A stretch of 64,000 nt of DNA from a virus (lineage: Duplodnaviria; Caudoviricetes). Position numbers and translations under genes: made by a program. Every line of letters starts with the position of its first letter. The stretch's first letter is position 1. Below the pieces are notes generated by a model. That model was not told where the DNA came from and ran no database searches. It saw nothing but the letters and a program-made list of their open reading frames with translations. The stretch is from the IMG/VR virus record IMGVR_UViG_3300047557_002530; one strand, 5' to 3'. Positions 4,205-55,413 of this stretch are shown here, in pieces.

Positions 4205-4338
4205 TGAACGATTCTACACTTGATCTTTTCTGTCAGCACGAAGATGAAGCATTTGCTGATGAATATGCAATGGAATTAGAAAGGAAAGCAGCAGAGTTAG
4301 AAATTACTGTTGATTATTATATGATGGAGTTTATTTGA
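4204..4338 (+). CDS. small acidic hypothetical protein (44 aa)
   Basis: MNDSTLDLFCQHEDEAFADEYAMELERKAAELEITVDYYMMEFI; TGATG overlap with the upstream ORF. Confidence 0.55.
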   Translation: MNDSTLDLFCQHEDEAFADEYAMELERKAAELEITVDYYMMEFI

Positions 4339-4387
4339 TATAATGATAGTGTTATATTAAATAAATGTATTAAAAAACATATATGAG

Positions 4388-4430
4388 TTTTCAACAAGTC
4401 TGTGGAAAACGTTGTTGAATATGTGGAAAA
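4388..4430. promoter_or_regulatory. cluster of DnaA-box-like 9-mers
   Basis: TTTTCCACA on the minus strand at 4401-4409 and 4422-4430; degenerate copies at 4388-4396 (TTTTCAACA, +) and 4413-4421 (-). Confidence 0.45.
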
Positions 4431-4438
4431 CTATGTTT

Positions 4439-4475
4439 AATGTCTATAAATGTCTATAAATGTCTATAAATGTCT
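4439..4475 (+). repeat. AT-rich tandem repeat (AATGTCTATA) x3.7
   Basis: Exact 10-bp units start at 4439, 4449 and 4459, with a partial unit at 4469. Confidence 0.95.
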
Positions 4476-4501
4476 CAGAGTCTTGTGATCTTGGATTCTG
4501 T

Positions 4502-4530
4502 ATTATAACACAACAGCACTGTTTTGTCAA
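4502..4530 (-). promoter_or_regulatory. consensus sigma70 promoter on the minus strand
   Basis: Reverse complement reads TTGACA-aaacagtgctgttgtgt (17 nt)-TATAAT with an extended -10 TG. Confidence 0.75.
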
Positions 4531-4605
4531 TACCCCGCCGCCACTCAAAAAACTGGCACAAGGCGATAATTATAAAACAGTATAACACTATTGTTATATG
4601 TTATG

Positions 4606-4646
4606 AAACCCGTGAGACTCAGTATTTTTATGAGTCTCACGGGTTT
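4606..4646. terminator. perfect 16-bp inverted repeat (terminator or cruciform)
   Basis: AAACCCGTGAGACTCA, 9-nt loop, TGAGTCTCACGGGTTT, then a T-rich tail. Confidence 0.65.
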
Positions 4647-4899
4647 TTCTTTATGTACCTGTAAGACTCACGCGACGCAAACCACACAGAAAAGTGGCAC
4701 TTGGTCTCATGAGTCTTGCAAAATCGGATGTAGACTGTTAGGGCGGTAAGAGGGAGGGAAGATCATAAGAATCCCCCACACACTGGGTAATACTTATAAA
4801 CACTCCCAGACATACCTATATGCCCCTAGAAGGCGCTTATAATTACTTTTAGGTGTCTTCATACCTTATAGCACCTATTTTAAGTTTTGAAAAAACTTG

Positions 4900-4907
4900 T
4901 ATAAATA
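4900..4907 (+). promoter_or_regulatory. T4-type late promoter
   Basis: Exact TATAAATA in non-coding DNA. Confidence 0.55.
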
Positions 4908-5084
4908 AATCACCTATTCAAATTCAATAGAGCAGCTCTTGAACTTTCCTACGGGACCAAAAGGTAACAATCTGACAGAAAGAGAATAGAATTATAACAC
5001 ATTGATGGTTTATATGAAAGGCGAACAGGGTTTAACTATAGGTTTCCCAATGTGCCAAATGCCCGATGAAGAATATCAAACTCC

Positions 5085-5394
5085 TTCGTGATTAGGTGCT
5101 TTCCGTGCCATTGAATTACTTACAATCAATTGCTAAACATAAGAATCAAAAGTTCTTTCGTGTTTAGATAGATTTCGTATGGCTTTTTATAATATCAAAC
5201 AATCACTGAGATAACAACTCAAAGTTTGTTCGTGATTAGATAAGATTCGTACAGAGAATTTATATTTCACCACACTCATCAGAATGTCTTTAAGAATTCA
5301 TTCGTGATTAGATAAGATTCGTATTGATATTGATTCTGATAAACATTTACATGCATTTGTACTTGAAGATGATTCGTTTATAATCAGAGTTCGT
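5085..5394 (+). repeat. five-unit array, exact 72-bp period, core TTCGT-N12-TTCGT
   Basis: Cores start at 5085, 5157, 5229, 5301 and 5373; consensus TTCGTGATTAGATAAGATTCGT; about 50 nt of divergent sequence between cores. Confidence 0.85.
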
Positions 5395-5407
5395 TGTAGG
5401 GAATAAC

Positions 5408-5436
5408 TTGACAGTCAATATAAGGTCTGGTAGAAT
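5408..5436 (+). promoter_or_regulatory. sigma70-type promoter
   Basis: TTGACA-17 nt-TAGAAT; the -35 sits within the palindrome TTGACAGTCAA. Confidence 0.75.
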
Positions 5437-5469
5437 TAAGTCCGTAGAGTTTATTCGTTCTTCCGTCTT

Positions 5470-5643
5470 ATGGCAACTTCTTCTCTCACAGCACAGTCAC
5501 AAAAGAACAAGTATCGTATTACGTTAGAATTAAACGTGAATGAAGATTTTAATCCTCATCAGATTGATTGGAGTAAACTCTTTGATCTTGATCGTAACGA
5601 ACACGTTAAGAGTTACGTAGAAGATCTATCTACTCGCTGGTAA
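5470..5643 (+). CDS. small hypothetical protein (57 aa)
   Basis: MATSSLTAQSQKNKYRITLELNVNEDFNPHQIDWSKLFDLDRNEHVKSYVEDLSTRW, directly downstream of the promoter. Confidence 0.65.
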   Translation: MATSSLTAQSQKNKYRITLELNVNEDFNPHQIDWSKLFDLDRNEHVKSYVEDLSTRW

Positions 5644-5781
5644 TTATTAATACTTAATACCAGTAAGAAACATCGTCTTATAGATGTTTCGTTCATTCTT
5701 TATATACAGTGTTACCTAATAAGAATTAAGTTGTCTGATTATTCTTCTGATTTCGGGCAACTTAATTCTTTATTCTTATTA

Positions 5782-5976
5782 TTATTCGTTGTTAATTGAC
5801 AGCAGTTAGTATAAAGAATAGGTAATTCTTATTATATAAGTAGACAATTTTCGTGCTACTAGTATAAACAATTCGTTGTTTTATTCTAATAGCACAGTGA
5901 TTGGGGGGGCAGTTAGTATAAAATAGACGAATAATAATAGTTATTCGTTGTCAGTTGTTTATTCGTGTTAGCAGTT
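5782..5976 (+). repeat. dispersed short direct repeats
   Basis: GCAGTTAGTATAAA at 5802 and 5909; ATTCGTTG at 5784, 5871 and 5943; ATTCGTG at 5961. Confidence 0.7.
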
Positions 5977-6134
5977 ATTTTAATTAATTGTTTATTGTTT
6001 ATATTTTGCGTTGCCCCCCGTTTATAAAAATCGATAAGTCCCTAACCTACAGTGTATGTCTTTTTCGATCTCTATATCACTCTCATAAAAAAAAAATTTC
6101 CCAGAAAAAAATAACCTCAAAAAGAGCAAATAAA

Positions 6135-7028: not shown

Positions 7029-7793
7029 ATGGCCAAAGGATTTACAGTTAAAGCATCAGCACCCAAACCCCAAGAAGAATGGGATATTGATGGAATTAAA
7101 GAAAGAATGCGAGGTAAGAGTATTGTATTCTGTCTACCAGGACGAGGATGTTCTTTTATCTTTTTGAAGAATTTCGTACAACTGTGCTTTGATATGGTAC
7201 AGAATGGTATGAGTATTCAGATCTCACAAGACTATAGTTCAATGGTAAACTTTGCTCGTTGTAAAGTTCTTGGAGCAAATGTTTTGAGAGGACCAAAGCA
7301 GATTCCTTGGGATGGAAAACTGCAGTATGATTATCAACTTTGGATTGATAGTGACATTGTTTTTGACACGAACAAGTTCTGGCAACTCTGTGATCTTGCT
7401 CTCAATGCGGAAGGTGAGGAGAAGGAAATCGTCGCAGGTTGGTACGCTACTGAGGACGGTCACACAACTTCTGTCGCACATTGGTTGGAAGAAGATGATT
7501 TCCGTAAGAATGGCGGAGTCATGAACCACGAAACTGTGGAATCAATCAGCAAGCGTCGTAAGCCATTCACTGTAGATTACACAGGTTTTGGTTGGGTACT
7601 TATTAAGAAAGGTGTATTTGAAAATCTTGAATACCCTTGGTTTGCTCCTAAGATGCAAGTCTTTGATTCTGGCAAAGTACAAGATATGTGCGGTGAGGAC
7701 GTTTCATTCTGTCTTGATGCTAAAGAGGCAGGCTTTGAAGTTTGGTGCGACCCTCGTATTAGAGTCGGTCATGAGAAAACTCGTATTATCTAA
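7029..7793 (+). CDS. GT-A-fold glycosyltransferase-like conserved cyanophage protein
   Basis: WIDSDIVF (DxD), TGFGWVLIKKGVFE, GEDVSFCL..KEAG, VGHEK. Confidence 0.65.
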   Translation: MAKGFTVKASAPKPQEEWDIDGIKERMRGKSIVFCLPGRGCSFIFLKNFVQLCFDMVQNGMSIQISQDYSSMVNFARCKVLGANVLRGPKQIPWDGKLQYDYQLWIDSDIVFDTNKFWQLCDLALNAEGEEKEIVAGWYATEDGHTTSVAHWLEEDDFRKNGGVMNHETVESISKRRKPFTVDYTGFGWVLIKKGVFENLEYPWFAPKMQVFDSGKVQDMCGEDVSFCLDAKEAGFEVWCDPRIRVGHEKTRII

Positions 7794-41934: not shown

Positions 41935-44121
41935 ATGGCGACTCCTCAATTATCTCCCGGTGTACTTACTAGGGAAGTAGATTTAACAGTTGGGAGAGCT
42001 GAGAACGTATTAGATAATATTGGTGCTATCGCAGGACCTTTTGCGATTGGACCAGTAGAAGAAATTATTGACATCAGCACAGAACAAGATTTAGTCAATA
42101 ACTTCGGAAAACCAATCTCAACAGATGCTCAGTATGAGTACTGGATGAGTGCAGCATCATATCTTTCATATGGTGGTATTCTTAAAGTTGTAAGAACTGA
42201 TGGAAGCACTCTTAATAACGCAAACGCTGGCGTTGGAATTGCTTCAACAACTTCATTAAAGATCAAAAACTACGATAACTACAACTCTAGTTTTATTGAG
42301 GCTACCAACTTTACATATGCTGCAAAAACCCCAGGTAAATGGGCGAATAATCTAAAGGTTTGCACCATCGATGATTTAGCAGACCAAAGAGTTGCTATCA
42401 CCACTACTAATCCTGGCGCACTAGGTGCTGTTATTGGATATGGCGTAACTACAGCGATTACTAACGTTGTTTTACCTGGTGCAGGCACAACCTCACTCTT
42501 CAATGGTTATTTGAAGGGTATCATTACTGGTATTACCACTGATGCTACTAATTCAAATAGCACTATTGATATTAAAGTACTTTCAAGAGTCTCTGCCGCA
42601 GGAACTGAAACCCCAGTTACTTATGCACAGGGCAACTCAATTCAATCCTTTGAAGCAGCAGATACTCTTTATTTTGTAAACAACTCAGGTATTAATACTG
42701 GTTCTACTGCATCAGCGGTAACAGTAGTTGATTGGTACGATCAACAAACTCTTGGTCTTACAAACTCAATCATTTATTGGAAGTCTATTGCTCCCAAACC
42801 AGCATCAAACAACTATTCCGTCCAAAGAAACGGAAAGAATGATTCAATGCATATTGTTGTTGTTGATGACACTGGTTCTATTACCGGAATTCAAGGAAAT
42901 ATTCTTGAAAAGCACATCAGTGTTTCAAAAGCATCTGATTCTGTTTCCTCTGTAAATTCTCCACAGAAGATCTGGTATAAGAACTATCTTGCCAACTTCT
43001 CGCAATACATTTACGCAGGTTACAATCCATCACTTGCAAGAGACTCTCAGTGGGGATCCAATCCAGTTGCAACTGGATTCTCAAGTGGATTTACTCCATT
43101 TACCCTACCTCAAGGTCAGTGGGGACAAGCAGCACAAGGAGTAACTTTCAGTGCTATTGGAAACGTTGCCTATAACTTTGGTGGAGGAGTTGATTATTCT
43201 GCAAATGGCGGAATGTCCGCATCTCTTGGAGATCTTGTAAGTGCTTATGATCTATTCTCAAATAAAGATAGAGTTGCAGTTGATTTCTTAATTAATGGAC
43301 CAGGACTTGCAAATGAGTCTGATTCACAGGCAAAGGCAAACAAACTAATCTCACTTGCAGAAGGAAGAAAAGATTGCGTTGCTGTTGTTTCTCCTCATAG
43401 AGCAAATGTTGTTGACCTAACAAATGCAACAACTCAAACTAATAATGTAATCAGATTCTTCAGTGCTCTGTCCTCTTCATCTTATGCAGTTTTTGATAGT
43501 GGATATAAGTATACTTACGATAGATTCAACAATCTATTCAGATACATTCCTTGCAATGCTGATATTGCTGGATTGATGATGAGAACAAACATTAATTCTT
43601 ATCCTTGGTATTCACCTGCAGGTCAGCAAAGAGGTGTTCTGAATAATGCAATTAAACTTGCATATAATCCCTCCAAGGATCAAAGAGATCTACTTTATAC
43701 TGCAAGAGTTAATGCCATCACCAGTCAACCTGGAATTGGTATTTACCTCTTTGGCGATAAGACTGCTCTAGGATATGCATCTGCATTTGACAGAATCAAT
43801 GTTCGTCGTCTGTTCCTAACTATCGAACAAGCACTTGAGAAAGCATCTCAAGCACAACTCTTCGAACTCAACGATCAGATTACAAGAGCAAACTTTGTAA
43901 ATATCGTTGAACCTTATCTAAGAGATGTTCAAGCAAAGAGAGGTCTATATGACTTCCTGGTAATTTGTGATGAGACTAATAACACTCCTGATGTAATTGA
44001 TAATAATGAGTTTAGAGCTGACATCTTCCTGAAGCCAACAAAATCTATTAACTATGTAACTCTGACGTTCGTTGCTACCCGAACAGGCATTAGTTTTGAA
44101 GAAGTAGCAGGTAGAGTTTAA
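41935..44121 (+). CDS. gp18: tail sheath protein gp18
   Basis: LSPGVLTREVDLT, WYSPAGQQRG, FDRINVRRLF, DIFLKPTKSINYV; AATAAATA at 41893. Confidence 0.98.
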   Translation: MATPQLSPGVLTREVDLTVGRAENVLDNIGAIAGPFAIGPVEEIIDISTEQDLVNNFGKPISTDAQYEYWMSAASYLSYGGILKVVRTDGSTLNNANAGVGIASTTSLKIKNYDNYNSSFIEATNFTYAAKTPGKWANNLKVCTIDDLADQRVAITTTNPGALGAVIGYGVTTAITNVVLPGAGTTSLFNGYLKGIITGITTDATNSNSTIDIKVLSRVSAAGTETPVTYAQGNSIQSFEAADTLYFVNNSGINTGSTASAVTVVDWYDQQTLGLTNSIIYWKSIAPKPASNNYSVQRNGKNDSMHIVVVDDTGSITGIQGNILEKHISVSKASDSVSSVNSPQKIWYKNYLANFSQYIYAGYNPSLARDSQWGSNPVATGFSSGFTPFTLPQGQWGQAAQGVTFSAIGNVAYNFGGGVDYSANGGMSASLGDLVSAYDLFSNKDRVAVDFLINGPGLANESDSQAKANKLISLAEGRKDCVAVVSPHRANVVDLTNATTQTNNVIRFFSALSSSSYAVFDSGYKYTYDRFNNLFRYIPCNADIAGLMMRTNINSYPWYSPAGQQRGVLNNAIKLAYNPSKDQRDLLYTARVNAITSQPGIGIYLFGDKTALGYASAFDRINVRRLFLTIEQALEKASQAQLFELNDQITRANFVNIVEPYLRDVQAKRGLYDFLVICDETNNTPDVIDNNEFRADIFLKPTKSINYVTLTFVATRTGISFEEVAGRV

Positions 44122-44156
44122 TTAATTTTATAATAACCACATAGGAGGAACTAAAA

Positions 44157-44825
44157 ATGTCTAGTCTCAGAACAATCACAGGATTCAAAGAAAGACTTGC
44201 TGGTGGTGGTGCAAGACCCAATCTATTTGAGGTTGAAATCCCCTCTTTCCCAGCACCTATCACCAATCTATGGAAGGCAGGTGCCGGTCAAGAAATTGAC
44301 ACCTTCAAGTTCTTATGTAAAGCAGCTGCACTTCCAGCATCAAACGTTGCACCAATCGACGTTCCATTTAGAGGACGTATTTTAAAAGTTGCTGGAGACA
44401 GAACTTTTGATACCTGGACTATTACTATCATCAACGATGAAGATTTCAAACTGAGATCTGCATTTGAACTCTGGATGAACAGTATCAGCAAACTGGATAA
44501 TAACAGTGGTGCAACTAATCCAGGTTCTTATATGACTGATGCTTATGTTCATCAACTTGGAAGAGGATATAATGCTCCATCCCTTAATAATGGCAGATTC
44601 TCTACCAAAAACAATGGTGGAAATGACGCAACAGTAGAAACTAACATCACTCCACTAAGAACTTATAAGTTCCATAGCATTTTCCCAACAAATGTTAGTG
44701 CGATTGATCTTTCATATGATTCTTCGGATACTATTGAAGAGTACAGCGTAGAATTCCAAGTTCAATACTGGACTGCAGGAAAAGGTGCGAATAAAAATGA
44801 CGCAACCAACACTTTGATTAGTTGA
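44157..44825 (+). CDS. gp19: tail tube protein gp19
   Basis: GGARPNLFEV, VPFRGRILKVAGDRTFDTWT.T..ND, IEEYSVEFQVQYW. Confidence 0.97.
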   Translation: MSSLRTITGFKERLAGGGARPNLFEVEIPSFPAPITNLWKAGAGQEIDTFKFLCKAAALPASNVAPIDVPFRGRILKVAGDRTFDTWTITIINDEDFKLRSAFELWMNSISKLDNNSGATNPGSYMTDAYVHQLGRGYNAPSLNNGRFSTKNNGGNDATVETNITPLRTYKFHSIFPTNVSAIDLSYDSSDTIEEYSVEFQVQYWTAGKGANKNDATNTLIS

Positions 44826-44860
44826 TAAATATTAGAATAAAGACTAATCAAATATAAATT

Positions 44861-46549
44861 ATGACAAGATTATTTGGATTCTCTATTGAGGATAACGAAC
44901 CACTATCTCCAACTACGGTCAGTCCTGTTCCTCCTAATAATGAGGACTCTTCTGACCATTATTTGAGTAGTGGTTTTTTTGGTTCCTATGTTGATATTGA
45001 AGGAGTCTACAGAACAGAATTTGATCTTATTAAAAGATATCGTGAAATGGCACTGCACCCAGAGTGTGATAGTGCCATTGAAGATATTGTAAACGAAGCA
45101 ATCGTATCAGACACAAATGATACGCCAGTAGAAATCGAACTTTCAAACCTTAATGCCAGTGACGGCATTAAGAAAAAAATTAGACAAGAATTTAAATATA
45201 TTCTTTCACTTTTAGATTTCGATAAAAAGTCTCACGAAATTTATAGAAACTGGTATATCGACGGAAGAATTTATTATCACAAAGTAATTGACCTCAAGAG
45301 CCCTCATGAGGGAATTCAAGAGTTGCGTTACATAGATCCAATGAAGATGAGATATGTGAGGCAGCAAAAGAAAAGTAGCAAAGACAAATATAGAGTAGCA
45401 AATATAAATGTAGATAATCCCATGGATTTTGAATTTCCTCAAATTGAGGAATATTTTATTTACAATCCAAAGTCAACTTATCCTGCAGGTAGTCCCTCAT
45501 CTATGGGTGGATCTGCAGGTATCAAAATGGCAAGAGACTCTATTACTTATTGCACTTCTGGACTTGTAGATAGAAATAAAGGGTCAACTCTTTCATATCT
45601 ACATAAAGCAATTAAGTCACTCAACCAGCTAAGAATGATTGAGGACTCTCTTGTTATCTATAGATTATCTCGTGCTCCTGAGCGTCGTATTTTCTACATT
45701 GATGTAGGTAATCTCCCAAAGGTAAAGGCAGAACAATATCTTCGCGATGTTATGATGCGCTATCGTAACAAACTTGTATATGATGCAAACACTGGCGAAA
45801 TTCGTGATGATAAAAAGTTTATGGCGATGCTTGAAGATTTCTGGTTGCCAAGAAGGGAAGGTGGTAGAGGAACTGAAATCTCAACACTTCCAGGCGGACA
45901 GAATCTTGGAGAAATCACAGACATTGAGTACTTCAAGAAAAAACTTTATCGTTCATTGAATGTTCCCCCATCAAGAATGGACGGAGAAGGTGGATTTAAT
46001 CTTGGTCGTTCTTCAGAAATCTTGAGAGATGAAGTTAAGTTCAGTAAATTCGTATCTCGTCTGAGAAAGAGATTCTCTTATATGTTCCATGATATGCTTA
46101 AGACTCAACTGATTCTTAAAAATATCATCACCCCAGAAGACTGGGATATTATGCAAGAGCATATCCAATATGATTTCTTATATGATAATCACTTTGCTGA
46201 ACTTAAGGATGCAGAACTTCTCAACGAAAGATTGAATATGGTTCAAGTTGCAGAACCTTATATTGGAAAATATTTCTCCCAGGACTATGTAAGACGTAAG
46301 ATTCTTCGCCAAACTGACGAAGAGATTGTCGAGCAAGATAAGATTATCAAAAAAGAAATTGAAGATGGTATTATTCCAGACCCTAATGTTCCCGTAGATC
46401 CTATGACAGGAATGCCTATGGAACCAGGAATGCAACCTGGAGCATCAGGAATGGATCTTGGACAACCAGTAATGGAACCAGAAATTAATGCTGCTCCAAC
46501 GGAACCAAACACAAAAGCAGTAGAAATGCCCAAGGGTGGGGAAATATAA
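44861..46549 (+). CDS. gp20: portal vertex protein gp20
   Basis: YRLSRAPERRIFYIDVGNLPK, EDFWLPRREGGRGTEISTLPGG. Confidence 0.98.
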   Translation: MTRLFGFSIEDNEPLSPTTVSPVPPNNEDSSDHYLSSGFFGSYVDIEGVYRTEFDLIKRYREMALHPECDSAIEDIVNEAIVSDTNDTPVEIELSNLNASDGIKKKIRQEFKYILSLLDFDKKSHEIYRNWYIDGRIYYHKVIDLKSPHEGIQELRYIDPMKMRYVRQQKKSSKDKYRVANINVDNPMDFEFPQIEEYFIYNPKSTYPAGSPSSMGGSAGIKMARDSITYCTSGLVDRNKGSTLSYLHKAIKSLNQLRMIEDSLVIYRLSRAPERRIFYIDVGNLPKVKAEQYLRDVMMRYRNKLVYDANTGEIRDDKKFMAMLEDFWLPRREGGRGTEISTLPGGQNLGEITDIEYFKKKLYRSLNVPPSRMDGEGGFNLGRSSEILRDEVKFSKFVSRLRKRFSYMFHDMLKTQLILKNIITPEDWDIMQEHIQYDFLYDNHFAELKDAELLNERLNMVQVAEPYIGKYFSQDYVRRKILRQTDEEIVEQDKIIKKEIEDGIIPDPNVPVDPMTGMPMEPGMQPGASGMDLGQPVMEPEINAAPTEPNTKAVEMPKGGEI

Positions 46550-46577
46550 ATAAAAAAGATTATTGACAGGTATTAAA

Positions 46578-46739
46578 ATGGATGATCTTTTAGATATGAT
46601 TGCTGCTGACGAATCACCTTCGCAGATTAGTGATAAGATTAAAGAACTTCTTTTTGCAAAATCCGCAGAAAAAATTGATGAGTTTCGGCCAGCAGTAGCA
46701 AATGCAATGTTTAATAACGAAACAGAAGAGGAAGAATGA
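46578..46739 (+). CDS. small acidic prohead core-type protein (gp67 position)
   Basis: MDDLLDMIAADESPSQISDKIKELLFAKSAEKIDEFRPAVANAMFNNETEEEE; TATAAATA at 46545. Confidence 0.7.
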   Translation: MDDLLDMIAADESPSQISDKIKELLFAKSAEKIDEFRPAVANAMFNNETEEEE

Positions 46740-47056
46740 AGTCATTCAAACAATTCATCTCAGAATCAGTAAATATTTCCGGAGATTTTAACGGAAATCT
46801 TTACATCAATTCTTCTGAACCAGAACCACAACAGGTTGGTGAAGAATATGTTGCGGATGTTTTGTGGAATGGGAGTCTTTATAGAATGGAACTCGTATCA
46901 AATACTGGAGTTCCATCAAAACAATCTTTAGGTGAAGAATTGCAAGCAGAATATCCAGGAGCAATTGTTCACCAGATTTATCCAGTAATGGAAAAGAATA
47001 TTAACATTAAAAATACGCAAAGATATCACCCATCAAAATTAGAATGGATTGATTGA
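46736..47056 (+). CDS. putative internal head protein with capsid-targeting-like N-terminus
   Basis: Starts MKSFKQFISE, compared with T4 IP MKTYQEFIAE. Confidence 0.7.
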   Translation: MKSFKQFISESVNISGDFNGNLYINSSEPEPQQVGEEYVADVLWNGSLYRMELVSNTGVPSKQSLGEELQAEYPGAIVHQIYPVMEKNINIKNTQRYHPSKLEWID

Positions 47057-47059
47057 TTT

Positions 47060-48385
47060 ATGGCTCAGTGGAATATAACAACCCAAGATTACTTAAATCA
47101 AGAAAGAAGTCTTTTTGAGGTTAATGGTGTTGCAACAAGAGATGGAAAAATTGTAGATGAGTACAATAGATTTCCAGTTAGCATAAATTCTGATGCTTTT
47201 GGAAGAACAAGAGTATCAAATCCATTAACACTTTTTGATTCTTCTCACCGATATAGAGATAATAATCTGTGGGATAGTTTAGTCATAGGAACTGGTTCTA
47301 CTGTTGGATTTGCAACAACAGCAGGTTTAGTTAATATGACTGTAGGTGTTGGAAGTACCGCATCAGTTATTAGAGAAACTACAAAAGTATTTTCATATCA
47401 ACCAGGAAAATCCTTGTTGACTATGAATACCTTTATATTGAATCCACCAAAAGAAAATCTAAGGCAAAGAGTTGGGTATTTTGGTGCTGATAATGGAATA
47501 TATTTTGAGGTTGATGGAACCACTGCATATTTTGTAGAGAGAAGTTTATCATTAGGAACAGAGACAAGAGTTTCTCAGTCAAACTGGAATATTGATAAGT
47601 TAGACGGAACAGGTGTTTCTGGAATTACATTAGATTTAACTAAGGCACAAATCCTTTGGATGGATATTGAGTGGTTAGGACTTGGAAATGTAAGACTTGG
47701 ATTTATAATTGATGGAAAGTTTATTCACGCACATACTTTCCAACACGCAAATATAATTCAATCAACCTATATTACAACAGCATCACTTCCATTGAGGTAT
47801 GAGATTAGCAACACTGGAATTACAACCAGTGCAAGTACGTTAAAGCAGGTTTGCTCCACAGTAATTTCTGAAGGTGGTTATGAACTTCGTGGATTACAGC
47901 AAGCAATTTCAACACCGATTATTACACCAGTAGACTTACCAACTCCTAGAGGAACATATTACCCTGTTATTTCTATTCGATTAAAAGCACCAGTTAATGG
48001 GCAACCGGATAGATTGGATGCAATTGTTATTATGACCGCACTATCACTTATGGGGACTGGAAATGGTCCTCAATATAACTGGCAGATAAGAGCAAGTGCA
48101 ACCACATCGGGAGGAATTTGGGTGAGTGCCGGAGATGATTCTGCTGTTGAATATAAACTAGACGGTGGAACTGTTAGCGGTGGAAGAGTTCTGGCATCTG
48201 GATTCCTTACTTCAGCAAACCAATCATCACAATCAGTAGATATTCTAAAGGAAGCACTCTTTAAGTTTCAGTTAGAAAGAAACGGTTTAACTAAAACTCC
48301 ATATGAACTAACTTTAGTTGCTGCATCTGATACTGCAGGTGCTGATATCTTTGCTTCTATGGATTGGGAAGAAATTAGTAGGTAA
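47060..48385 (+). CDS. beta-rich hypothetical virion protein
   Basis: 441-aa ORF inside the head gene cluster (DAFGRTRVSNPLTLFDS, YQPGKS, DIEWLGLGNVRLGF). Confidence 0.75.
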   Translation: MAQWNITTQDYLNQERSLFEVNGVATRDGKIVDEYNRFPVSINSDAFGRTRVSNPLTLFDSSHRYRDNNLWDSLVIGTGSTVGFATTAGLVNMTVGVGSTASVIRETTKVFSYQPGKSLLTMNTFILNPPKENLRQRVGYFGADNGIYFEVDGTTAYFVERSLSLGTETRVSQSNWNIDKLDGTGVSGITLDLTKAQILWMDIEWLGLGNVRLGFIIDGKFIHAHTFQHANIIQSTYITTASLPLRYEISNTGITTSASTLKQVCSTVISEGGYELRGLQQAISTPIITPVDLPTPRGTYYPVISIRLKAPVNGQPDRLDAIVIMTALSLMGTGNGPQYNWQIRASATTSGGIWVSAGDDSAVEYKLDGGTVSGGRVLASGFLTSANQSSQSVDILKEALFKFQLERNGLTKTPYELTLVAASDTAGADIFASMDWEEISR

Positions 48386-48442
48386 TTATTTAACCTTAAC
48401 TTGATTAAATAATAAATAAATAAAAGTGTATTATTAAAAATA

Positions 48443-48997
48443 ATGGCTCATAGACCAATTGGTGCTGGAGCTTCATTTGCATTTTCTGCAGGTGCTGCGT
48501 CCACATCCTCAGCATTTTCAGTTCAATCTAATGTATTAAGAGTAGTTGCCGTTGGTGCAGCTGCTCATGTTGCTATTGGTACTGGATCAGCAGCATCGGT
48601 AACGGATTATTATATTCCATCAGGTCAATCAGTAACTCTTGGTCTTACCAAGGCTTCTAATAGAGTTGTTGGAATTACGACAGGTACAACTACAACAGTA
48701 ATAGTACCAGAGGGAACTCAAGTTCCATTTGGTGTTGGTGACTTTGTTTCGATATCGGCAACTGGTCAACCATATTATGATATTTCTCACGCAGCAGTTC
48801 TTTCAGTAAATACCATTACGAGTTTTGATGGGTATCATCAGACAAGAATGGTGATTGATTATAACTCTTCTGGAATATCAACTACCTTTGGCGCTTCATA
48901 TGCAGATGTGAAACTATCACAAAAAATCTCTGCATATGGTGCTGGCGGTGCAGGAGTTCTTTATTACCAACAAGTACAAATCACAGGTCAAGCATAA
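48443..48997 (+). CDS. hypothetical head-cluster protein
   Basis: 184 aa, preceded by AATAAATA at 48411; its stop overlaps the gp21 start. Confidence 0.75.
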   Translation: MAHRPIGAGASFAFSAGAASTSSAFSVQSNVLRVVAVGAAAHVAIGTGSAASVTDYYIPSGQSVTLGLTKASNRVVGITTGTTTTVIVPEGTQVPFGVGDFVSISATGQPYYDISHAAVLSVNTITSFDGYHQTRMVIDYNSSGISTTFGASYADVKLSQKISAYGAGGAGVLYYQQVQITGQA

Positions 48998-49647
48998 TGA
49001 AACTTATTACCGAAGAAATCGAATCAGTAGAAGTCCTTACCGAAACGGTCAACGGTAAGAAGACTCTTTATATTCAAGGACCTTTCTTACAAACAGAAAA
49101 AACAAACCGTAACAATAGACGTTATGGACGTGTTGTAATGGAAAGAGAGGTAAAGCGTTATACCGAGCAATATATTTGCAAAGGTCGTGCTCTTGGAGAA
49201 CTTGGACACCCCGATGGACCAACTGTAAATTTGGATCGTGTTTCACATAAAATTATTTCACTTGAGCAAAGAGGAAATGATTTTATTGGAAAGGCACAAA
49301 TCCTTTCAACTCCTATGGGGAAAATCGTAGAATCACTCCTCAAAGATGGAGTTTGTCTCGGTGTTTCTTCTCGTGGTATTGGTTCAGTAAGACAACATCC
49401 AAGTGGATATATGGAAGTCGGTGAGGACTTCATGCTTGCAACTGCAGCAGATATCGTGGCTGACCCTTCCGCACCTGATGCATTTGTTCAAGGAATTATG
49501 GAAGGTAAAGAGTGGGTATGGGATGGAGGAATGCTTCGCGAAAAAATGGCGGAGCAAACTCAAAGAAGAATTAATACTCTGGTAGATGAAAAACTTCTAG
49601 GAGAGTATAAGTTAAGTTTATTCAATGAGTTCCTAAATTCATTGTAA
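48997..49647 (+). CDS. gp21: prohead protease gp21
   Basis: ALGELGHP, LDRVSH, LGVSSRG.GS, DIVADPSAPDAFV. Confidence 0.97.
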   Translation: MKLITEEIESVEVLTETVNGKKTLYIQGPFLQTEKTNRNNRRYGRVVMEREVKRYTEQYICKGRALGELGHPDGPTVNLDRVSHKIISLEQRGNDFIGKAQILSTPMGKIVESLLKDGVCLGVSSRGIGSVRQHPSGYMEVGEDFMLATAADIVADPSAPDAFVQGIMEGKEWVWDGGMLREKMAEQTQRRINTLVDEKLLGEYKLSLFNEFLNSL

Positions 49648-49703
49648 TTAATTAAATTATAAATAAATATAGTTTATAACGTAAGGTTAAACGGAGAGTT
49701 CAA

Positions 49704-50876
49704 ATGTCTCGTGGAGATTTACAAGAAATGGAAGTAGGCACTAAGCAATCCAGAACCGCTGTTAATGCTAATGCCAAAGCAGCGGATGCGATGCCACACC
49801 TATCTGGGTCAACCCCAGGACAAACTGGTGGTTGGGAAGATCTCGGTGGTCCTGATCCTACCAATTATCGCCCCACCGATGATTCAGCAAAAATCAAAAC
49901 ACCTGGACAAACACTTAAGCAAGTTAAGGATGTTGTTAATAAAGGTGCCAAGGCTGCTGAAGCAATGAAGGGTGTTAAGGAAGATGAAGAGTTTGAGTAT
50001 GATGAAGACGAAGAACTTCTAGAATCTATGCACGAAGAAGACGACGAAGAAGAAGGTAGCAAGAAAAAAGGTAAAAAGAAAGGAAGTGACGAAGAGAACG
50101 AAGGTGACGAAGGTGACGAAGGTGACGAAGAAGATGATGAAATGAAAGAAGAGTTTAGCATCGAAGAAGATGTTAACGCTCTTCTAGATGGTGAAGATCT
50201 TTCTGAGGAATTTCAAGAGAAAGCACGCACCATCTTTGAAGCCGCTATTCGTTCAAAAGTTTATGAAATTCAAGAGTCTCTTGAGGAGCAATATGCAGTT
50301 GCTCTTCAAGAGGAAGTAGAAGAAATTAAGTCTGAACTTTCTGAGCGTGTTGACGCATACCTTGAGTATGTTTCTGGCGAGTGGATGGAAGAAAATGCGC
50401 TCGTCATCGAAAACGGTCTTAAGACCGAAATGACTGAATCATTCCTCCAAGGAATGAAGGGTCTTTTTGAAGATCATTATGTATCAATCCCTGAAGATAA
50501 ATATGATGTGCTTGAGAGCATGGTAGAAAAACTTGATGAAATGGAGACAAAACTCAACGAGCAAATTGAGAGAAATGTTTCCCTTAACAAGCGTCTCGCA
50601 GAGTCGGTTGCTGATGGAATCTTTGAACAGGTCTCTGATGGTCTTGCAGACACTCAGAAAGACAAGCTCGCTTCACTTGCCGAAAGTGTTGAGTTTGAAA
50701 GTGAAGAAGAATATCGTGAAAAACTGGAGACATTGAGGGAATCATATTTCCCATCAAGAGCAGTTTCTCCATCTGCAAGAACTGAAACTCTGTCTGAAGG
50801 TTTAGATAGTTCACCAGAAACTATTTCTGGTTCAATGGCTACCTATCTGAAGACTCTTTCAGCATTCCGCAAATAA
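49704..50876 (+). CDS. gp22: prohead core scaffold gp22
   Basis: Acidic coiled coil, LSEEFQEKARTIFEAA, YLEYV..EWMEEN; TATAAATA at 49658. Confidence 0.95.
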   Translation: MSRGDLQEMEVGTKQSRTAVNANAKAADAMPHLSGSTPGQTGGWEDLGGPDPTNYRPTDDSAKIKTPGQTLKQVKDVVNKGAKAAEAMKGVKEDEEFEYDEDEELLESMHEEDDEEEGSKKKGKKKGSDEENEGDEGDEGDEEDDEMKEEFSIEEDVNALLDGEDLSEEFQEKARTIFEAAIRSKVYEIQESLEEQYAVALQEEVEEIKSELSERVDAYLEYVSGEWMEENALVIENGLKTEMTESFLQGMKGLFEDHYVSIPEDKYDVLESMVEKLDEMETKLNEQIERNVSLNKRLAESVADGIFEQVSDGLADTQKDKLASLAESVEFESEEEYREKLETLRESYFPSRAVSPSARTETLSEGLDSSPETISGSMATYLKTLSAFRK

Positions 50877-50934
50877 TTGAATTTAATATAATTCAAACCC
50901 AAAAAACAAACACTTAGTAAAAGGTAAAAAGCAA

Positions 50935-52371
50935 ATGTTCCATTCCGAGCATCTGCAGGAAAAGTGGGCACCTCTCCTCAACTATGAGGGTCTTGATTCA
51001 ATCAAAGATTCTCATCGTAAAGCGGTAACCGCAGTCCTGCTCGAAAACCAAGAAAGATTTTTAAGAGAGCAATCTGCATTTGAGCACGGCTCAATGCAGA
51101 ACCTAATGGAATCACCAACCATGTCAGCTAATGCTGCTGGTGCTGGCGGTGGTTTCGGTGGTGGCGCTGGTCTTGCTGGTGGTCCTACCGCAGGTTTCGA
51201 TCCCGTACTGATCTCGCTGATCCGTCGTTCGATGCCTAATCTGATCGCTTATGACGTTGCTGGCGTTCAGCCAATGAGCGGTCCTACTGGACTCATCTTT
51301 GCGATGCGCTCCCAGTACTACAAAGAGGGTGCAAGAACTGAAGCATTCTATAACGAAGCTGATTCTGCATTCTCCGGTCAAGACTACGGTTTTGATGAAT
51401 CTGCTGGATTTACCGATGCTAACGTCGGTATGGGTACTACTACTCAATCAGGTAGCAACCCAAGCGTACTCAACCCAGTTGGAACCGCTACCTCAACGGC
51501 ATATAATGTCGGTCAGGGAATGGTTACCGGTGATGCAGAAAACCTTGACGGTACTGCTAACGATGCATTTAACCAGATGGCTTTCTCAATCGAGAAAGTC
51601 ACCGTTACTGCAAAGTCACGTGCTCTGAAGGCTGAGTACTCACTTGAGCTCGCTCAGGACCTCAAGGCAATCCACGGTCTGAATGCTGAAGCGGAACTCG
51701 CAAACATTCTCTCAACTGAGATTCTTGCTGAGATCAACCGCGAAGTTATTCGTACCATCTATAAGGTTGCAGAACAGGGTGCTGTACAAAATACCGCAAC
51801 TCCTGGTATCTTTGACCTAGACATCGACTCCAACGGTCGTTGGTCGGTTGAGAAGTTCAAGGGTCTTCTGTTCCAGATTGAGCGTGATGCTAACGCAATC
51901 GCTCAGAGAACTCGTCGTGGAAAGGGCAACATCATCCTCTGCTCTGCAGACGTTGCTTCCGCTCTAACCATGGCTGGCGTTCTGGATTATACCCCTGCAC
52001 TTAACGCTAACCTGTCTGTTGATGATACCGGCAATACTTTTGCTGGTACTCTGATGGGCAAATTCCGCGTTTACATTGACCCATATGCTGCTAACCTGAC
52101 TTCGGGTAACACCACCCCAGGCAACCAGTACTATGTTGTCGGTTATAAGGGTTCTTCACCTTATGACGCTGGACTCTTCTATTGTCCTTATGTTCCTCTC
52201 CAAATGGTTCGTGCCGTTGGTGAGAACAGCTTCCAGCCTAAGATTGGCTTTAAGACCCGTTACGGAATGGTTGCAAACCCATTCGCTGAGGGCACCAATC
52301 AGGGTCTCGGTCGCCTACAGACCAACCAGAACCGTTACTACAGACGTGTTGCTGTTAAGAACCTCATGTGA
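50935..52371 (+). CDS. gp23: major capsid protein gp23
   Basis: LQEKWAPLL, VQPMSGPTGLIFAMR, SRALKAEYSLELAQDLKAIHGL, YCPYVPL, FQPKIGFKTRYG. Confidence 0.99.
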   Translation: MFHSEHLQEKWAPLLNYEGLDSIKDSHRKAVTAVLLENQERFLREQSAFEHGSMQNLMESPTMSANAAGAGGGFGGGAGLAGGPTAGFDPVLISLIRRSMPNLIAYDVAGVQPMSGPTGLIFAMRSQYYKEGARTEAFYNEADSAFSGQDYGFDESAGFTDANVGMGTTTQSGSNPSVLNPVGTATSTAYNVGQGMVTGDAENLDGTANDAFNQMAFSIEKVTVTAKSRALKAEYSLELAQDLKAIHGLNAEAELANILSTEILAEINREVIRTIYKVAEQGAVQNTATPGIFDLDIDSNGRWSVEKFKGLLFQIERDANAIAQRTRRGKGNIILCSADVASALTMAGVLDYTPALNANLSVDDTGNTFAGTLMGKFRVYIDPYAANLTSGNTTPGNQYYVVGYKGSSPYDAGLFYCPYVPLQMVRAVGENSFQPKIGFKTRYGMVANPFAEGTNQGLGRLQTNQNRYYRRVAVKNLM

Positions 52372-52392
52372 TTTAAATCACAAAAGGTTTCT

Positions 52393-52418
52393 GGGACCCC
52401 AAAAGGGTCCCTTTTTTT
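52393..52418 (+). terminator. intrinsic terminator after gp23
   Basis: GGGACCC-caaaa-GGGTCCC followed by a T run. Confidence 0.9.
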
Positions 52419-52436
52419 ATCTAAATATTTAAAAAA

Positions 52437-52997
52437 ATGGCAACAAACGCATATAAGAACCAAATTAAAAATAGAAACTTTTTATCGCCAACAGGATTTA
52501 AGTTCATTTTAAATAGAGCACCAGAGGTTGCGTTTTTTTCTAACTCAGCAAATATACCAGGAATAACACTTGGTATAGCAAATCAAAGCAACTACTTGAG
52601 AGACATACCGCAACCAGGGGAGAAGTTAGATTTTGATGACTTCAATCTAAGATTTATGGTGGATGAAGATTTGGCGAACTATAATGAAGTTTCAAAATGG
52701 ATGAGAGGACTTGGATTTCCAGAAAGTTTAAATGAAATATATAACTTACAGAAAGATAATCCAAATTTAAATCAACCAAACAAGACTCAACTTAACTTAT
52801 ACTCTGACGGAACACTAACTGTCTATAATAGCAATTTTAAACCAAACTTTAAGATTAAGTTTAGAGATATGTTTCCATATAGTTTGACAACTTTGGAATT
52901 TGATTCAACTCAAACCGATATCCAGTACTTTACTGCAGAGGTCAACTTCAAGTATACTATGTTTAACATCACCGATTTGGACGGCAATCCTTTATGA
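52437..52997 (+). CDS. gp3: tail completion protein gp3
   Basis: NRNFLSPTGFKF, FMVDEDL.NY, FRDMFPYSLTTLEFD. Confidence 0.9.
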   Translation: MATNAYKNQIKNRNFLSPTGFKFILNRAPEVAFFSNSANIPGITLGIANQSNYLRDIPQPGEKLDFDDFNLRFMVDEDLANYNEVSKWMRGLGFPESLNEIYNLQKDNPNLNQPNKTQLNLYSDGTLTVYNSNFKPNFKIKFRDMFPYSLTTLEFDSTQTDIQYFTAEVNFKYTMFNITDLDGNPL

Positions 52998-53431
52998 GTT
53001 TTGATTTAGATATGATCCAGAAGATGTGGGAACAAGATTCTAAGATTGATATGGATAACCTTCATACGGAGTCTACAAACATTCCCGTTCTTCACGCAAA
53101 GTATTTTGATCTTTACAATACAATTTTTCTATTGAGAAAAAAAGCAGAGCAACAAAAAAGAAATATTAGACATGAAAGATATGAATACTATTCTGGCAAA
53201 TCAGACCCAGAAGTATATGTAGAAAATCCTTTTCCAAAAAAGATTCGCGATAAAGATACAATGCAAAAATATCTTGATGCTGATGAAAAACTTTCAACAG
53301 TATGTCTTAAAATAGATTACTACGATACAATGCTTACTTATATTGAGAGCATTTTAAAAATGATTCAGAACAGAACGTTTCAAATCAAAAATGCTATCGA
53401 GTTTATGAGATTTAACGCTGGACTAGGGTAA
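52994..53431 (+). CDS. uvsY: recombination mediator UvsY
   Basis: IP.LHAKY, R.FQIKNAIE; lies before uvsW. Confidence 0.9.
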   Translation: MSFDLDMIQKMWEQDSKIDMDNLHTESTNIPVLHAKYFDLYNTIFLLRKKAEQQKRNIRHERYEYYSGKSDPEVYVENPFPKKIRDKDTMQKYLDADEKLSTVCLKIDYYDTMLTYIESILKMIQNRTFQIKNAIEFMRFNAGLG

Positions 53432-53458
53432 ATAAATACTCATAGCAATTATGATGTT

Positions 53459-54922
53459 ATGAGTGACGTAATTATTGAAAAAAAGAATGAGGTTTACATT
53501 AAACTACATTGTGAACCTCATATTTTGTATGAACTTCAACCGTACTTTACATTTGAAGTCGAATCTGCCAAGTTTATGTCCCAGTATAGAAGCAGACACT
53601 GGGACGGCAAGATTCGACTGTTAAGTACTCATACTGGAGAAATTTATGCTGGTTTGTTGGATAAAGTTATTGACAAACTAACTCTCCATAACTATAAGTA
53701 TGAGTTTAAAAAAAATAAGTTTTATGGTATGCCTTTCGAAGTCGATGAAGGTGTATCATTTGAGGGTGTCAAGGATTATATGCAGTCTATTTGCACTCAT
53801 AGTCCACGTCAGTATCAATTAGAGGGAGTATACGACGCTCTAAGACATAATAGAAAATTATTGATATCACCCACAGCCTCAGGTAAATCCTTAATGATTT
53901 ACTCCCTCGTAAGGTATTACGTAGATAAAGGACAAAAAATTCTTCTAGTTGTTCCAACGACATCTCTTGTAGAGCAGATGTACAAGGATTTCCAAGACTA
54001 TGGTTGGAATGCTGAGTCATATTGTCACCGTATCTATTCTGGTAGAGAAAAAACAAACGAACATCCTGTAACGATTACAACTTGGCAATCTGTTTACAAA
54101 CTTGAACGTTCATTTTTTGAGGACTATGGAGTAGTTATAGGAGATGAAGCTCACCTATTTAAGAGCAAATCTCTTGTTGATATTATGTCTAAACTTCATC
54201 ACGCCAAGTATCGTTTTGGATTTACTGGAACTTTAGATGGCACTCAAACTCACAAGTGGGTTCTTGAAGGATTATTTGGTCCTTCATATAAGGTTACTCG
54301 AACTTATGAGTTGATGGAACAAGGACATATTTCTCAGTTAGATATTCGCTGCCTTGTTCTTAAGCACAAACCACAAAAGTTTGAAACTTATGAGGATGAG
54401 ATTCAATATTTAATTTCTCAAGAACAAAGAAATAAATTTATTACAAATCTTTCTCTAGATCTAAAGGGAAATACTCTTGTCCTTTTTTCAAGGGTAGAAG
54501 CACATGGAGCAGTTTTATATGAAAAGATAAATAATACCAAGCGAGGTGATCGTAAAGTATTTTTCATTCATGGTGGAGTTGATACTGAAGAAAGAGAAAT
54601 GGTTAGAGAAATAACAGAAAGGGAAAACAATGCAATCATTGTTGCTTCCTATGGAACTTTTTCCACTGGTATCAATATTAAAAATCTCCATAATGTTATC
54701 TTTGCATCTCCAAGCAAATCACGTATTAGAAATCTACAATCAATTGGACGAGTTCTTAGAAAAGGAAAAAATAAAGTAAAGGCAGTACTTTACGATATTT
54801 CTGATGATTGTACTTATAATTCAAGAAAAAATTATACTTTAAATCATTTAATTGAAAGAATCAAAATCTATAATGAAGAAAATTTTAACTATGAAATAAT
54901 CACCGTACAACTAAAAACATGA
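53459..54922 (+). CDS. uvsW: SF2 DNA helicase UvsW
   Basis: SPTASGKS, DEAH, FGFTGT, STGINI, LQSIGRVLR. Confidence 0.96.
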   Translation: MSDVIIEKKNEVYIKLHCEPHILYELQPYFTFEVESAKFMSQYRSRHWDGKIRLLSTHTGEIYAGLLDKVIDKLTLHNYKYEFKKNKFYGMPFEVDEGVSFEGVKDYMQSICTHSPRQYQLEGVYDALRHNRKLLISPTASGKSLMIYSLVRYYVDKGQKILLVVPTTSLVEQMYKDFQDYGWNAESYCHRIYSGREKTNEHPVTITTWQSVYKLERSFFEDYGVVIGDEAHLFKSKSLVDIMSKLHHAKYRFGFTGTLDGTQTHKWVLEGLFGPSYKVTRTYELMEQGHISQLDIRCLVLKHKPQKFETYEDEIQYLISQEQRNKFITNLSLDLKGNTLVLFSRVEAHGAVLYEKINNTKRGDRKVFFIHGGVDTEEREMVREITERENNAIIVASYGTFSTGINIKNLHNVIFASPSKSRIRNLQSIGRVLRKGKNKVKAVLYDISDDCTYNSRKNYTLNHLIERIKIYNEENFNYEIITVQLKT

Positions 54923-55311
54923 TTGAAGAAGATTTTTACGCAACAGTAAAATTAAAATCAGGCGAAGAAATCTTTGCCAAAGTAGCAGCTTCAGAAGAAG
55001 AAGATAGAACTCTATTAATTATATCAAATCCAATTACAGTCAATGAAATTAAAGGTAGAACAGGAGTAGTTGGATATAAACTAGAACCTTGGCTTAAAAC
55101 AACCAAAGAGGATATGTTTATTATCAATCTAGAAGATGTTCTCACTTTATCCGAATCTTCTGATGTTGAAATGATTATGATGTATCAAACATTTGTACGT
55201 CAAACCAATAAGAATGGTTCAAAACATTCAAAGATAAACAGAAGAATGGGTTACATCGCTAATGTCAATGATGCTAAAGAGATACTTGAAAAACTCTTTA
55301 AGAATAGCTAA
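54919..55311 (+). CDS. conserved hypothetical protein between uvsW and gp55
   Basis: 130-aa ORF (ATVKLKSGEEIFAKV); overlaps the uvsW stop. Confidence 0.8.
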   Translation: MIEEDFYATVKLKSGEEIFAKVAASEEEDRTLLIISNPITVNEIKGRTGVVGYKLEPWLKTTKEDMFIINLEDVLTLSESSDVEMIMMYQTFVRQTNKNGSKHSKINRRMGYIANVNDAKEILEKLFKNS

Positions 55312-55338
55312 ACCCTGACCTTCAAACCCAACAAAGGT

Positions 55339-55367
55339 ATTCTATCTGCATTTCAATACCTTGTCAA
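55339..55367 (-). promoter_or_regulatory. near-consensus sigma70 promoter on the minus strand
   Basis: Reverse complement reads TTGACA-aggtattgaaatgcaga (17 nt)-TAGAAT. Confidence 0.6.
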
Positions 55368-55389
55368 GCATATGCATAAGTGCTATAAT
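55361..55389 (+). promoter_or_regulatory. sigma70 promoter of gp55
   Basis: TTGTCA-17 nt-TATAAT with an extended -10 TG. Confidence 0.75.
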
Positions 55390-55413
55390 TCATACATATT
55401 ATGAGTTAACCTA

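Follow-up and report, generated by a model that had tools for sequence, protein, structure and literature searches.

How do T4-like cyanophages, which are among the most abundant viruses of sea and lakes, begin to copy their genomes? To our knowledge no replication origin has been mapped in any of them, and a search of the literature turned up none that describes an origin, or DnaA boxes, in cyanomyoviruses. The question is raised here by a short intergenic cassette of one such phage, in which a consensus promoter points into tandem repeats, DnaA-box-like sites and AT-rich DNA, and which an initial annotation had read as a hybrid origin combining transcription priming with, possibly, host DnaA, or else as a source of antisense RNA against the early small-ORF operon. 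Comparison with related phages upholds one part of the origin reading, as the promoter, the repeats at its start site and the unstable block downstream of it are conserved and there is no conserved RNA fold; the DnaA part is weaker, the boxes being optional. The cassette is the best candidate for the replication start of this phage, and it is possible, if tentative, that it serves as a transcription-primed origin of the T4 oriF/oriG type to which host DnaA sites are accessory.

Genome setting of the cassette

The window, the whole stretch of 64,000 nt that was analysed, comprises bases 32001–96000 of a linear contig of 156,235 bp, which is a single IMG/VR record with a CheckV completeness of 74%. 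The phage is assigned to the T4-like cyanophages, family Kyanoviridae, and its closest isolates, SynMITS9220M01 and S-SM2, are about 78% identical to it in structural genes. The description of all genes as lying on the plus strand is near the truth, with 121 ORFs of at least 120 aa on the plus strand of the contig against 12 on the minus strand, most of the latter being shadows. Because nearly all genes are on one strand, GC skew carries no origin information, and the cumulative skew analysis that had been proposed as a check proved uninformative when run on the whole contig: both GC skew and AT skew rise monotonically from end to end, with no origin signal.

The cassette forms the left edge of a nearly ORF-free stretch of 1.6 kb (4339–5990) that has a series of small early ORFs on its left and the next early operon on its right. 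The upstream ORFs end at 4338, which leaves about 155 nt of non-coding DNA between the start site in the cassette and any gene. On the right, a hairpin followed by TTTTT on the plus strand (4606–4649), read from the sequence and consisting of a perfect 16-bp stem (aaacccgtgagactca/tgagtctcacgggttt) with a 9-nt loop, is likely a rho-independent terminator of plus-strand read-through from the upstream early operon and would mark the right boundary of the cassette. A simple terminator scan overlooked this hairpin owing to its 9-nt loop, and a weak miRNA-like Rfam match at the same coordinates merely reflects the hairpin itself. Since the putative terminator is located 270–310 nt past the last upstream ORF, the cassette appears to sit in the 3′ untranslated region of the upstream operon.

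The plus-strand early promoter of the first ORF of the next operon is found at 5408–5436, with about 850 bp, the hairpin at 4606–4649 among them, inserted between it and the cassette. The minus-strand promoter, the repeats, the boxes and the AT-rich block remain together despite this insertion and are therefore a unit of their own. The first ORF to the right of the cassette (5470–5643) is 60–67% identical to its counterpart in SynMITS9220M01 and S-SCSM1. Among the neighbouring ORFs, PHROGs gives only families of unknown function and an HNH endonuclease 2 kb away, with no Rep-like or initiator gene; linkage to dnaA or dnaN is likewise absent at the cassette, whose flanking ORFs encode small phage proteins without assigned function. 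The ORF at 6548–7024 matches HNH homing-endonuclease families (phrog_59, E 2e-28) and lies directly before a conserved 254-aa gene (7029–7793).

A conserved minus-strand promoter

The perfect minus-strand promoter of the initial annotation is present at 4502–4530 and is of the sigma-70 type, with the −35 element TTGACA at 4530–4525, the −10 element TATAAT at 4507–4502 and a 17-nt spacer that contains an extended −10 TG at 4510–4509. Transcription is predicted to start near 4495 and to proceed leftwards. This is the sole 12/12 match to TTGACA/TATAAT on the minus strand of the entire contig, and genomes simulated with a first-order Markov model yielded 0.08 such promoters for each strand. Past the start site the minus strand has no plausible ORF, the longest being 7 codons, in agreement with the earlier claim. 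The promoter is bordered on both sides by conserved sequence. The block TTGTGATCTTGG (4483–4494), at or just downstream of the predicted start, is single-copy in the genome and invariant in alignment A2, whilst the upstream flank taccccgccgccactcaaaaaactggcaca (4531–4560) is near-identical in L330, L312 and L314 and corresponds to the GTGnCA..GGCACA block of marine relatives.

Selection on the −10 element can be read from related modules, which were retrieved from IMG/VR with a pattern consisting of TTGTGATCTTRG, 10–40 nt and TTGTCAA, specifying neither the −10 element nor the boxes. The pattern was found in 81 contigs, of which about 50 carry true window-type modules. In all of these roughly 50 modules, the hexamer located 17–18 nt from TTGACA on the minus strand has the form TAnnnT (TATGCT in 15, TATAAT in 8, TACGCT in 5, TAAGCT in 5, TAGAGT in 4, TAGACT in 3, and others). 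Positions −11 (A) and −7 (T) are thus invariant and the middle positions variable, as would be expected under selection for a functional sigma-70 −10 element. The marine group of S-CAM1, S-PM2 and Syn9 has TAAGAC or TAAACC as its −10, with no T at −7, and there TGTCAA is also one half of a TGTCA-N10-TGACA palindrome; for both reasons the promoter reading is weaker in this group, where TGTCAA may be an operator half-site rather than a −35 element.

A promoter of this kind could also belong to an antisense or convergent-transcription device with no role in replication, the minus-strand RNA entering the upstream operon of small early ORFs at its 3′ end and silencing or destabilising its messages, or transcription from both sides stopping read-through by polymerase collision. 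The conservation of the promoter is in keeping with such a device, as is the region to its left, where no minus-strand terminator was found between the start site at 4495 and the upstream ORFs ending at 4338; with the plus-strand terminator only at 4606–4649, the cassette would therefore lie in a region transcribed from both sides. There is also a precedent in the antisense RNA cfrI of cyanophage S-PM2, which is known from a study cited in PMC5931967. A promoter alone, however, leaves unexplained why conserved repeats, an AT-rich motif and a box cassette are packed into a non-coding stretch of some 155 nt. The upstream ORFs, which would be the targets, also differ among phages that share the cassette. 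An antisense function by itself is unlikely.

An unstable block downstream of the promoter

The very AT-rich stretch that had been noted downstream of the promoter is among the least stable DNA of the genome. Nearest-neighbour stability places the least-stable block, a candidate DNA unwinding element, at 4332–4385, and the 51-mer at 4332–4382 is the 7th least stable site in the genome (99.97th percentile of instability). The block begins about 110 nt from the minus-strand start site and lies about 110–165 nt away from it. It contains the motif AAATGTATTAAAAAACAT (4363–4380), which is single-copy in the genome and kept in S-SCSM1, S-CAM1, S-BM3, L330 and L314.

The same layout recurs in relatives. 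Duplex stability was measured in 54 modules that had been retrieved independently of base composition, with percentiles of low stability taken per locus. A 41-mer that reaches at least the 95th percentile was located no more than 260 nt downstream of the start in 50 of the 54. The median for this downstream 41-mer is the 99.8th percentile, and in 20 modules it is the maximum of the locus (rounding to 1.0). The median on the opposite side of the promoter is the 92.9th percentile; intergenic DNA is generally AT-rich, which weakens the argument from the unstable block.

DnaA boxes of the host type

Two exact and two degenerate copies of the 9-mer TTTTCCACA, as originally reported, lie within 4388–4430. 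The exact boxes, which read TGTGGAAAA and correspond to TTTTCCACA on the minus strand, occupy 4401–4409 and 4422–4430; of the degenerate ones, TTTTCAACA (4388–4396) has one mismatch and the opposite orientation to the exact boxes, and TGTTGAATA (4413–4421) has two mismatches. The first exact box is bracketed by an 8-bp inverted repeat (TTCAACAA/TTGTTGAA, 4390–4397 and 4412–4419). The number of exact boxes does not differ significantly from chance, either in the window (2 against 1.55 expected) or in the genome (6 against 4.1 expected). The grouping of two exact and two degenerate boxes in 43 bp is the only such pair in the genome, and an exact pair no more than 40 bp apart arose in 0 of 200 simulated genomes.

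The 9-mer TTTTCCACA is the DnaA box of cyanobacteria (PMC4674748), and this identification, which the initial annotation had given as established, also holds against the chromosomal origins inspected in the present analysis. Of 401 Cyanobacteriota genomes sampled, 40 contain the double box TGTGGAAAA-NNN-TGTGGAAAA, against 0 hits for a control motif, and the commonest chromosomal form of this double box has the spacer ACC and is identical to the phage 21-mer TGTGGAAAAACCTGTGGAAAA. In all five genomes checked (L135, L150, L248, L250 and L251), the double box adjoins dnaA and/or dnaN, being located between the two genes in L135 and L250; in these five it stands among 5–11 exact boxes and adjoins AT-rich DNA. 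Judged by sequence, the phage boxes are genuine host-type boxes that match the core of the cyanobacterial oriC.

Their spacing varies. In the window the exact boxes are 12 nt apart with the two-mismatch box between them, and many relatives have a pair spaced by 3 bp. Basal unwinding systems have been defined by two boxes in tandem, separated by at most 3 bp and followed, within 16 bp, by DnaA-trios, (.A.){3,} (PMC8287927). By eye, no run of three NAN triplets occurs past the last forward box, and the runs beside the reverse box are trivial in DNA so rich in A and T.

The likely hosts are picocyanobacteria, to which the best psbA match points (83% nucleotide identity); a set of small genomes was ruled out as hosts by their TTTTCTACA-type boxes and their lack of psbA. 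The picocyanobacteria nearest by psbA are without the exact double box and have only boxes with 1–2 mismatches upstream of dnaN, so that the phage boxes are nearer the consensus than those of the probable host origin. Exact-box pairs do occur in these picocyanobacteria at two other loci, not upstream of dnaN. At one, seen in L258 (G358:C1:1484500-1489500, 2454-2764), L260, L262 and L261, three exact boxes lie in a gene-free gap of about 900 bp, one of them reversed and two about 290 bp away at 11-bp spacing. This gap adjoins neither dnaA nor dnaN; one of its neighbours is a gene for a GNAT acetyltransferase or a sulfite reductase, and at its other end lie recG in L261 and, in L258, a gene of the glutamyl/glutaminyl-tRNA synthetase family together with unnamed ORFs. 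In L259, DUF1818 and an Hsp70-like gene enclose a second conserved box pair, in inverted arrangement.

Across whole phage genomes, tight box clusters are found at the cassette only, and the boxes exceed the control motif by 12 to 0 in S-CAM1, 10 to 0 in DSL-LC03 and 8 to 1 in S-PM2d. The freshwater isolate DSL-LC03 has a second cluster, with five exact boxes (L003 2890–2965), about 400 bp to the right of the first cassette cluster. Arrays of 4–5 exact TGTGGAAAA boxes were also observed outside the myovirus cassette context in five low-GC IMG/VR contigs of 30–50 kb (L020, L098, L035, L117 and L025), which may represent other cyanophage types with host DnaA sites.

Not every cassette carries the boxes. 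At least two exact copies are present in 14 of 17 marine-type modules, which were retrieved without reference to boxes, and in about one third of the window-type modules, whilst the cassette of SynMITS9220M01 has none. The nearest relative, L330, is nearly identical to the window on both sides of the boxes, over the upstream ORF and the AT-rich block to the left and over the repeats, the promoter and its flank to the right, and has an unrelated sequence exactly in place of the window's box segment of about 50 nt; the more distant S-SCSM1 shares the boxes. Conservation in related cyanophages, which had been named as a check on the origin reading, extends to the backbone of the cassette and, for the exact 9-mers, to some relatives only, L330 and SynMITS9220M01 lacking them. 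By this pattern of presence and absence the boxes are an optional, swappable accessory and not part of the cassette core, and, being dispensable in evolution, they cannot be essential to whatever the cassette does.

An add-on that comes and goes on a constant backbone is also what would be expected if the boxes were a decoy, sensor or switch, either drawing DnaA off the host origin or allowing it, once bound, to block or modulate both transcripts running across the cassette, and so tying early expression to the replication state of the host. The perfect consensus of the phage boxes, with flanks and spacer of the oriC type, compared with the mismatched boxes upstream of dnaN in the likely hosts, would suit this purpose, as would the excess of boxes over the control motif in S-CAM1, DSL-LC03 and S-PM2d. 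Two exact boxes, as found here, would nevertheless make a small sink, and the universal promoter, repeats and AT-rich block have no part in such a scheme, which we consider rather improbable.

Tandem repeats at the start site

The AT-rich tandem repeat was recovered by TRF at 4439–4475 as 3.7 copies of AATGTCTATA (score 74, 100% matches), the copy number given originally. A TATAAATG(Y)CT repeat is found across the family, and this is its local version: nearly all window-type modules have, right at the start site, 1–9 copies of a related unit of about 20 bp, cTTATAAATG(y)(s)CTsAGrtC ('TATAAATGyCT'). The units are candidate iteron-like sites for a protein partner. Of the two hallmarks of an iteron-type origin, a class in which T4 oriE is counted with the Rep-iteron origins of plasmids and phages, direct repeats are present both here and in the relatives, and an adjacent Rep-like gene is absent.

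The repeat resembles the T4 late promoter TATAAATA, and its strand distribution does not support a late-promoter reading. On the contig, TATAAATA occurs 14 times on the plus strand against once on the minus strand and ATAAATA 49 times against twice, whereas TATAAATG has no plus-strand bias (7 against 6, with 3 of the plus-strand copies being the repeat itself). The motif also varies in relatives, which carry TTTAAATG and TATAAAGC.

Together with the flanking blocks, the TATAAATG(Y)CT repeats might instead form an operator array, bound by a phage or host protein that controls back-to-back early promoters or organises the DNA in a centromere-like manner, with no replication start. The phasing of the repeats directly at the start site and their variable copy number would suit an operator; so would the palindrome that overlaps the −35 element in marine relatives and the plus-strand early promoter that relatives have after the cassette. 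Such an array does not require an extreme low-stability block placed systematically downstream of the promoter, however, and no candidate binding protein is encoded beside the cassette, where the flanking ORFs are small and without an assigned function in PHROGs. As a full account of the cassette it seems quite unlikely.

Conservation and synteny

The cassette is single-copy in this genome. BLAST matches of the region are weak and all fall in unannotated gaps of cyanomyovirus isolates, and the same parts were identified in the gaps of S-SCSM1, DSL-LC03, S-BM3, S-RIM44, S-CAM1, S-PM2d and Syn9, with all but the boxes in SynMITS9220M01. The shared parts are the boxes (TGTGGAAAA, often arranged as ccTGTGGAAAAaccTGTGGAAAAc), the AAATGTATTAAAAAACATA motif, at least one TAAATG(Y)CT unit, a gtcttagc or gatcttgg block, and TGTCAA, which is TTGACA when read on the minus strand. 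In all eight isolates the gap is the same by synteny, lying between the small early ORF run and the next early operon, the first ORF of which is conserved. With the S-CAM1 version of the cassette as the query, 65 phage records were matched, and many genera and more than 100 metagenomic contigs have the whole arrangement in the same syntenic position. In S-PM2d, where the median intergenic length is 6 bp (PMC5931967), the gap that holds the cassette measures 440 bp.

Existing annotations overlap the cassette in two records. In Syn9 (L127, NC_008296 52477-52797), the boxes, the AT-rich block and gtcttagc are overlain by two annotated small ORFs, gp86 and gp87, which are probably not genes. In AJ630128, the original S-PM2 record (L125 18644-19989), tRNA-Asn and tRNA-Leu are annotated over the cassette and other tRNAs inside coding genes; because ARAGORN finds no tRNAs in the cassette of AJ630128 and the S-PM2d record has none there either, these tRNA coordinates look shifted or misplaced.

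That the motifs co-occur by chance, functionless, in AT-rich intergenic DNA is barely credible: the box counts stay within expectation and one perfect promoter per strand has P ~0.08, but the conservation data effectively refute this explanation, with the whole arrangement syntenic across so many genera and contigs and the −10 element under constraint.

A DNA element rather than a structured RNA

Whether the conserved segment acts as RNA or as DNA was addressed with 18 modules aligned in the orientation of the predicted RNA. The alignment shows blocks of linear sequence conservation, RNAalifold returned 0 conserved pairs over the 18 modules, and the predicted 161-nt transcript of the window folds no better than shuffled sequences (z = −0.86). 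Searches of the region for tRNA and tmRNA gave none that were credible, and Rfam gave three hits well below their gathering scores (E 0.09–0.16). A structured non-coding RNA was rejected on these grounds. With no conserved RNA fold, ORF, tRNA or Rfam match, the conserved features would work as DNA or else only by being transcribed, and the conserved architecture fits an origin-like cassette that works at the level of DNA.

A proposed mechanism

From this anatomy we infer a sequence of transcription, R-loop formation, priming and DnaA binding by which an origin of the T4 oriF/oriG type could operate. Host RNA polymerase would initiate at the minus-strand sigma-70 promoter near 4495 and, moving leftwards, cross first the 10-bp repeats and then the DnaA-box segment before it enters the unstable AT-rich block at 4332–4385. 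There the transcript would remain annealed as an R-loop, which would prime leading-strand synthesis and open the duplex for the gp59/gp41-61 primosome of the phage. The repeats would provide candidate binding sites for a protein. Where boxes are present, they could dock host DnaA between the promoter and the unwinding element, either as an aid to opening or as a block that ends the transcript at a fixed point; alternatively, DnaA could couple phage replication to the state of the host.

A broader and more doubtful proposal is that T4-like cyanophages in general begin their first round of replication at one dedicated, transcription-primed origin, composed of an early promoter, repeats that bind protein and an unwinding element, into which many lineages would have plugged the core of the host oriC, with its perfect DnaA boxes, so as to recruit DnaA or read it for timing, although strictly lytic and equipped with their own replisome. 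The box cassette would pass as a module from one phage to another.

A conserved, single-copy cassette with the logic of a T4 origin offers a precise site to examine, and isolates with working infection systems carry it (S-PM2, Syn9, S-CAM1 and S-RIM44). The near-identical backbones with and without boxes amount to a natural presence/absence experiment. If the host DnaA sites work, this would be, as far as we know, the first T4-like lytic phage to use or sense the host initiator; if the cassette is only a promoter or antisense device, it would still be a widespread regulatory hub of the early region.

Comparison with known origins

The minimal origin at T4 oriF (uvsY) and oriG (gene 34) consists of a promoter and a downstream A+T-rich unwinding element, in which a persistent R-loop primes replication, and oriE depends on an early promoter (Kreuzer and Brister 2010, PMC3016281). 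The account of T4 origins on which the initial annotation relied, that of promoter-driven R-loops in a downstream unwinding element, is therefore sound. T4 origins also share little homology with one another (PMC3016281), and so homology to them is not a defining feature. Both sequence-level features of oriF and oriG, the promoter and the A+T-rich element downstream of it, are present in the cassette. A further likeness lies elsewhere in the window, where positions 44000–56000 align with a stretch of SynMITS9220M01 and S-SM2 that is annotated in these relatives (the assignment being theirs) with uvsW among others; UvsW is the helicase that dissolves origin R-loops.

The cassette differs from the T4 origins in several respects. 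Its promoter is plain sigma-70 and not MotA-dependent, short tandem repeats adjoin the start, many members carry host DnaA boxes as well, and there is no apparent sequence similarity to T4 origins. We know of no T4 origin with DnaA boxes or such repeats. The AT-rich block is also about 110–165 nt from the start site, compared with compact T4 minimal origins of about 100 bp.

With the cyanobacterial oriC (PMC4674748), the cassette shares the same 9-mer with the same flanks, and relatives carry the identical 21-mer TGTGGAAAAACCTGTGGAAAA followed by AT-rich DNA. It departs from oriC and from the basal unwinding system (PMC8287927) in having two exact boxes only, no tight tandem pair and no convincing DnaA-trios. 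Moreover, dnaA and dnaN are not nearby, the boxes are optional among close relatives, and the setting is a lytic phage with its own replisome.

Plasmid origins offer a third comparison. The ColE1/pBR322 origin uses an RNA II R-loop primer with a DnaA box nearby, and P1 oriR is an iteron origin with DnaA boxes. Although the cassette has no RNA I/RNA II pair, conserved RNA fold, adjacent Rep gene or sequence similarity to either, it resembles both in combining transcript priming, as proposed here, or repeats with accessory DnaA sites and an AT-rich region.
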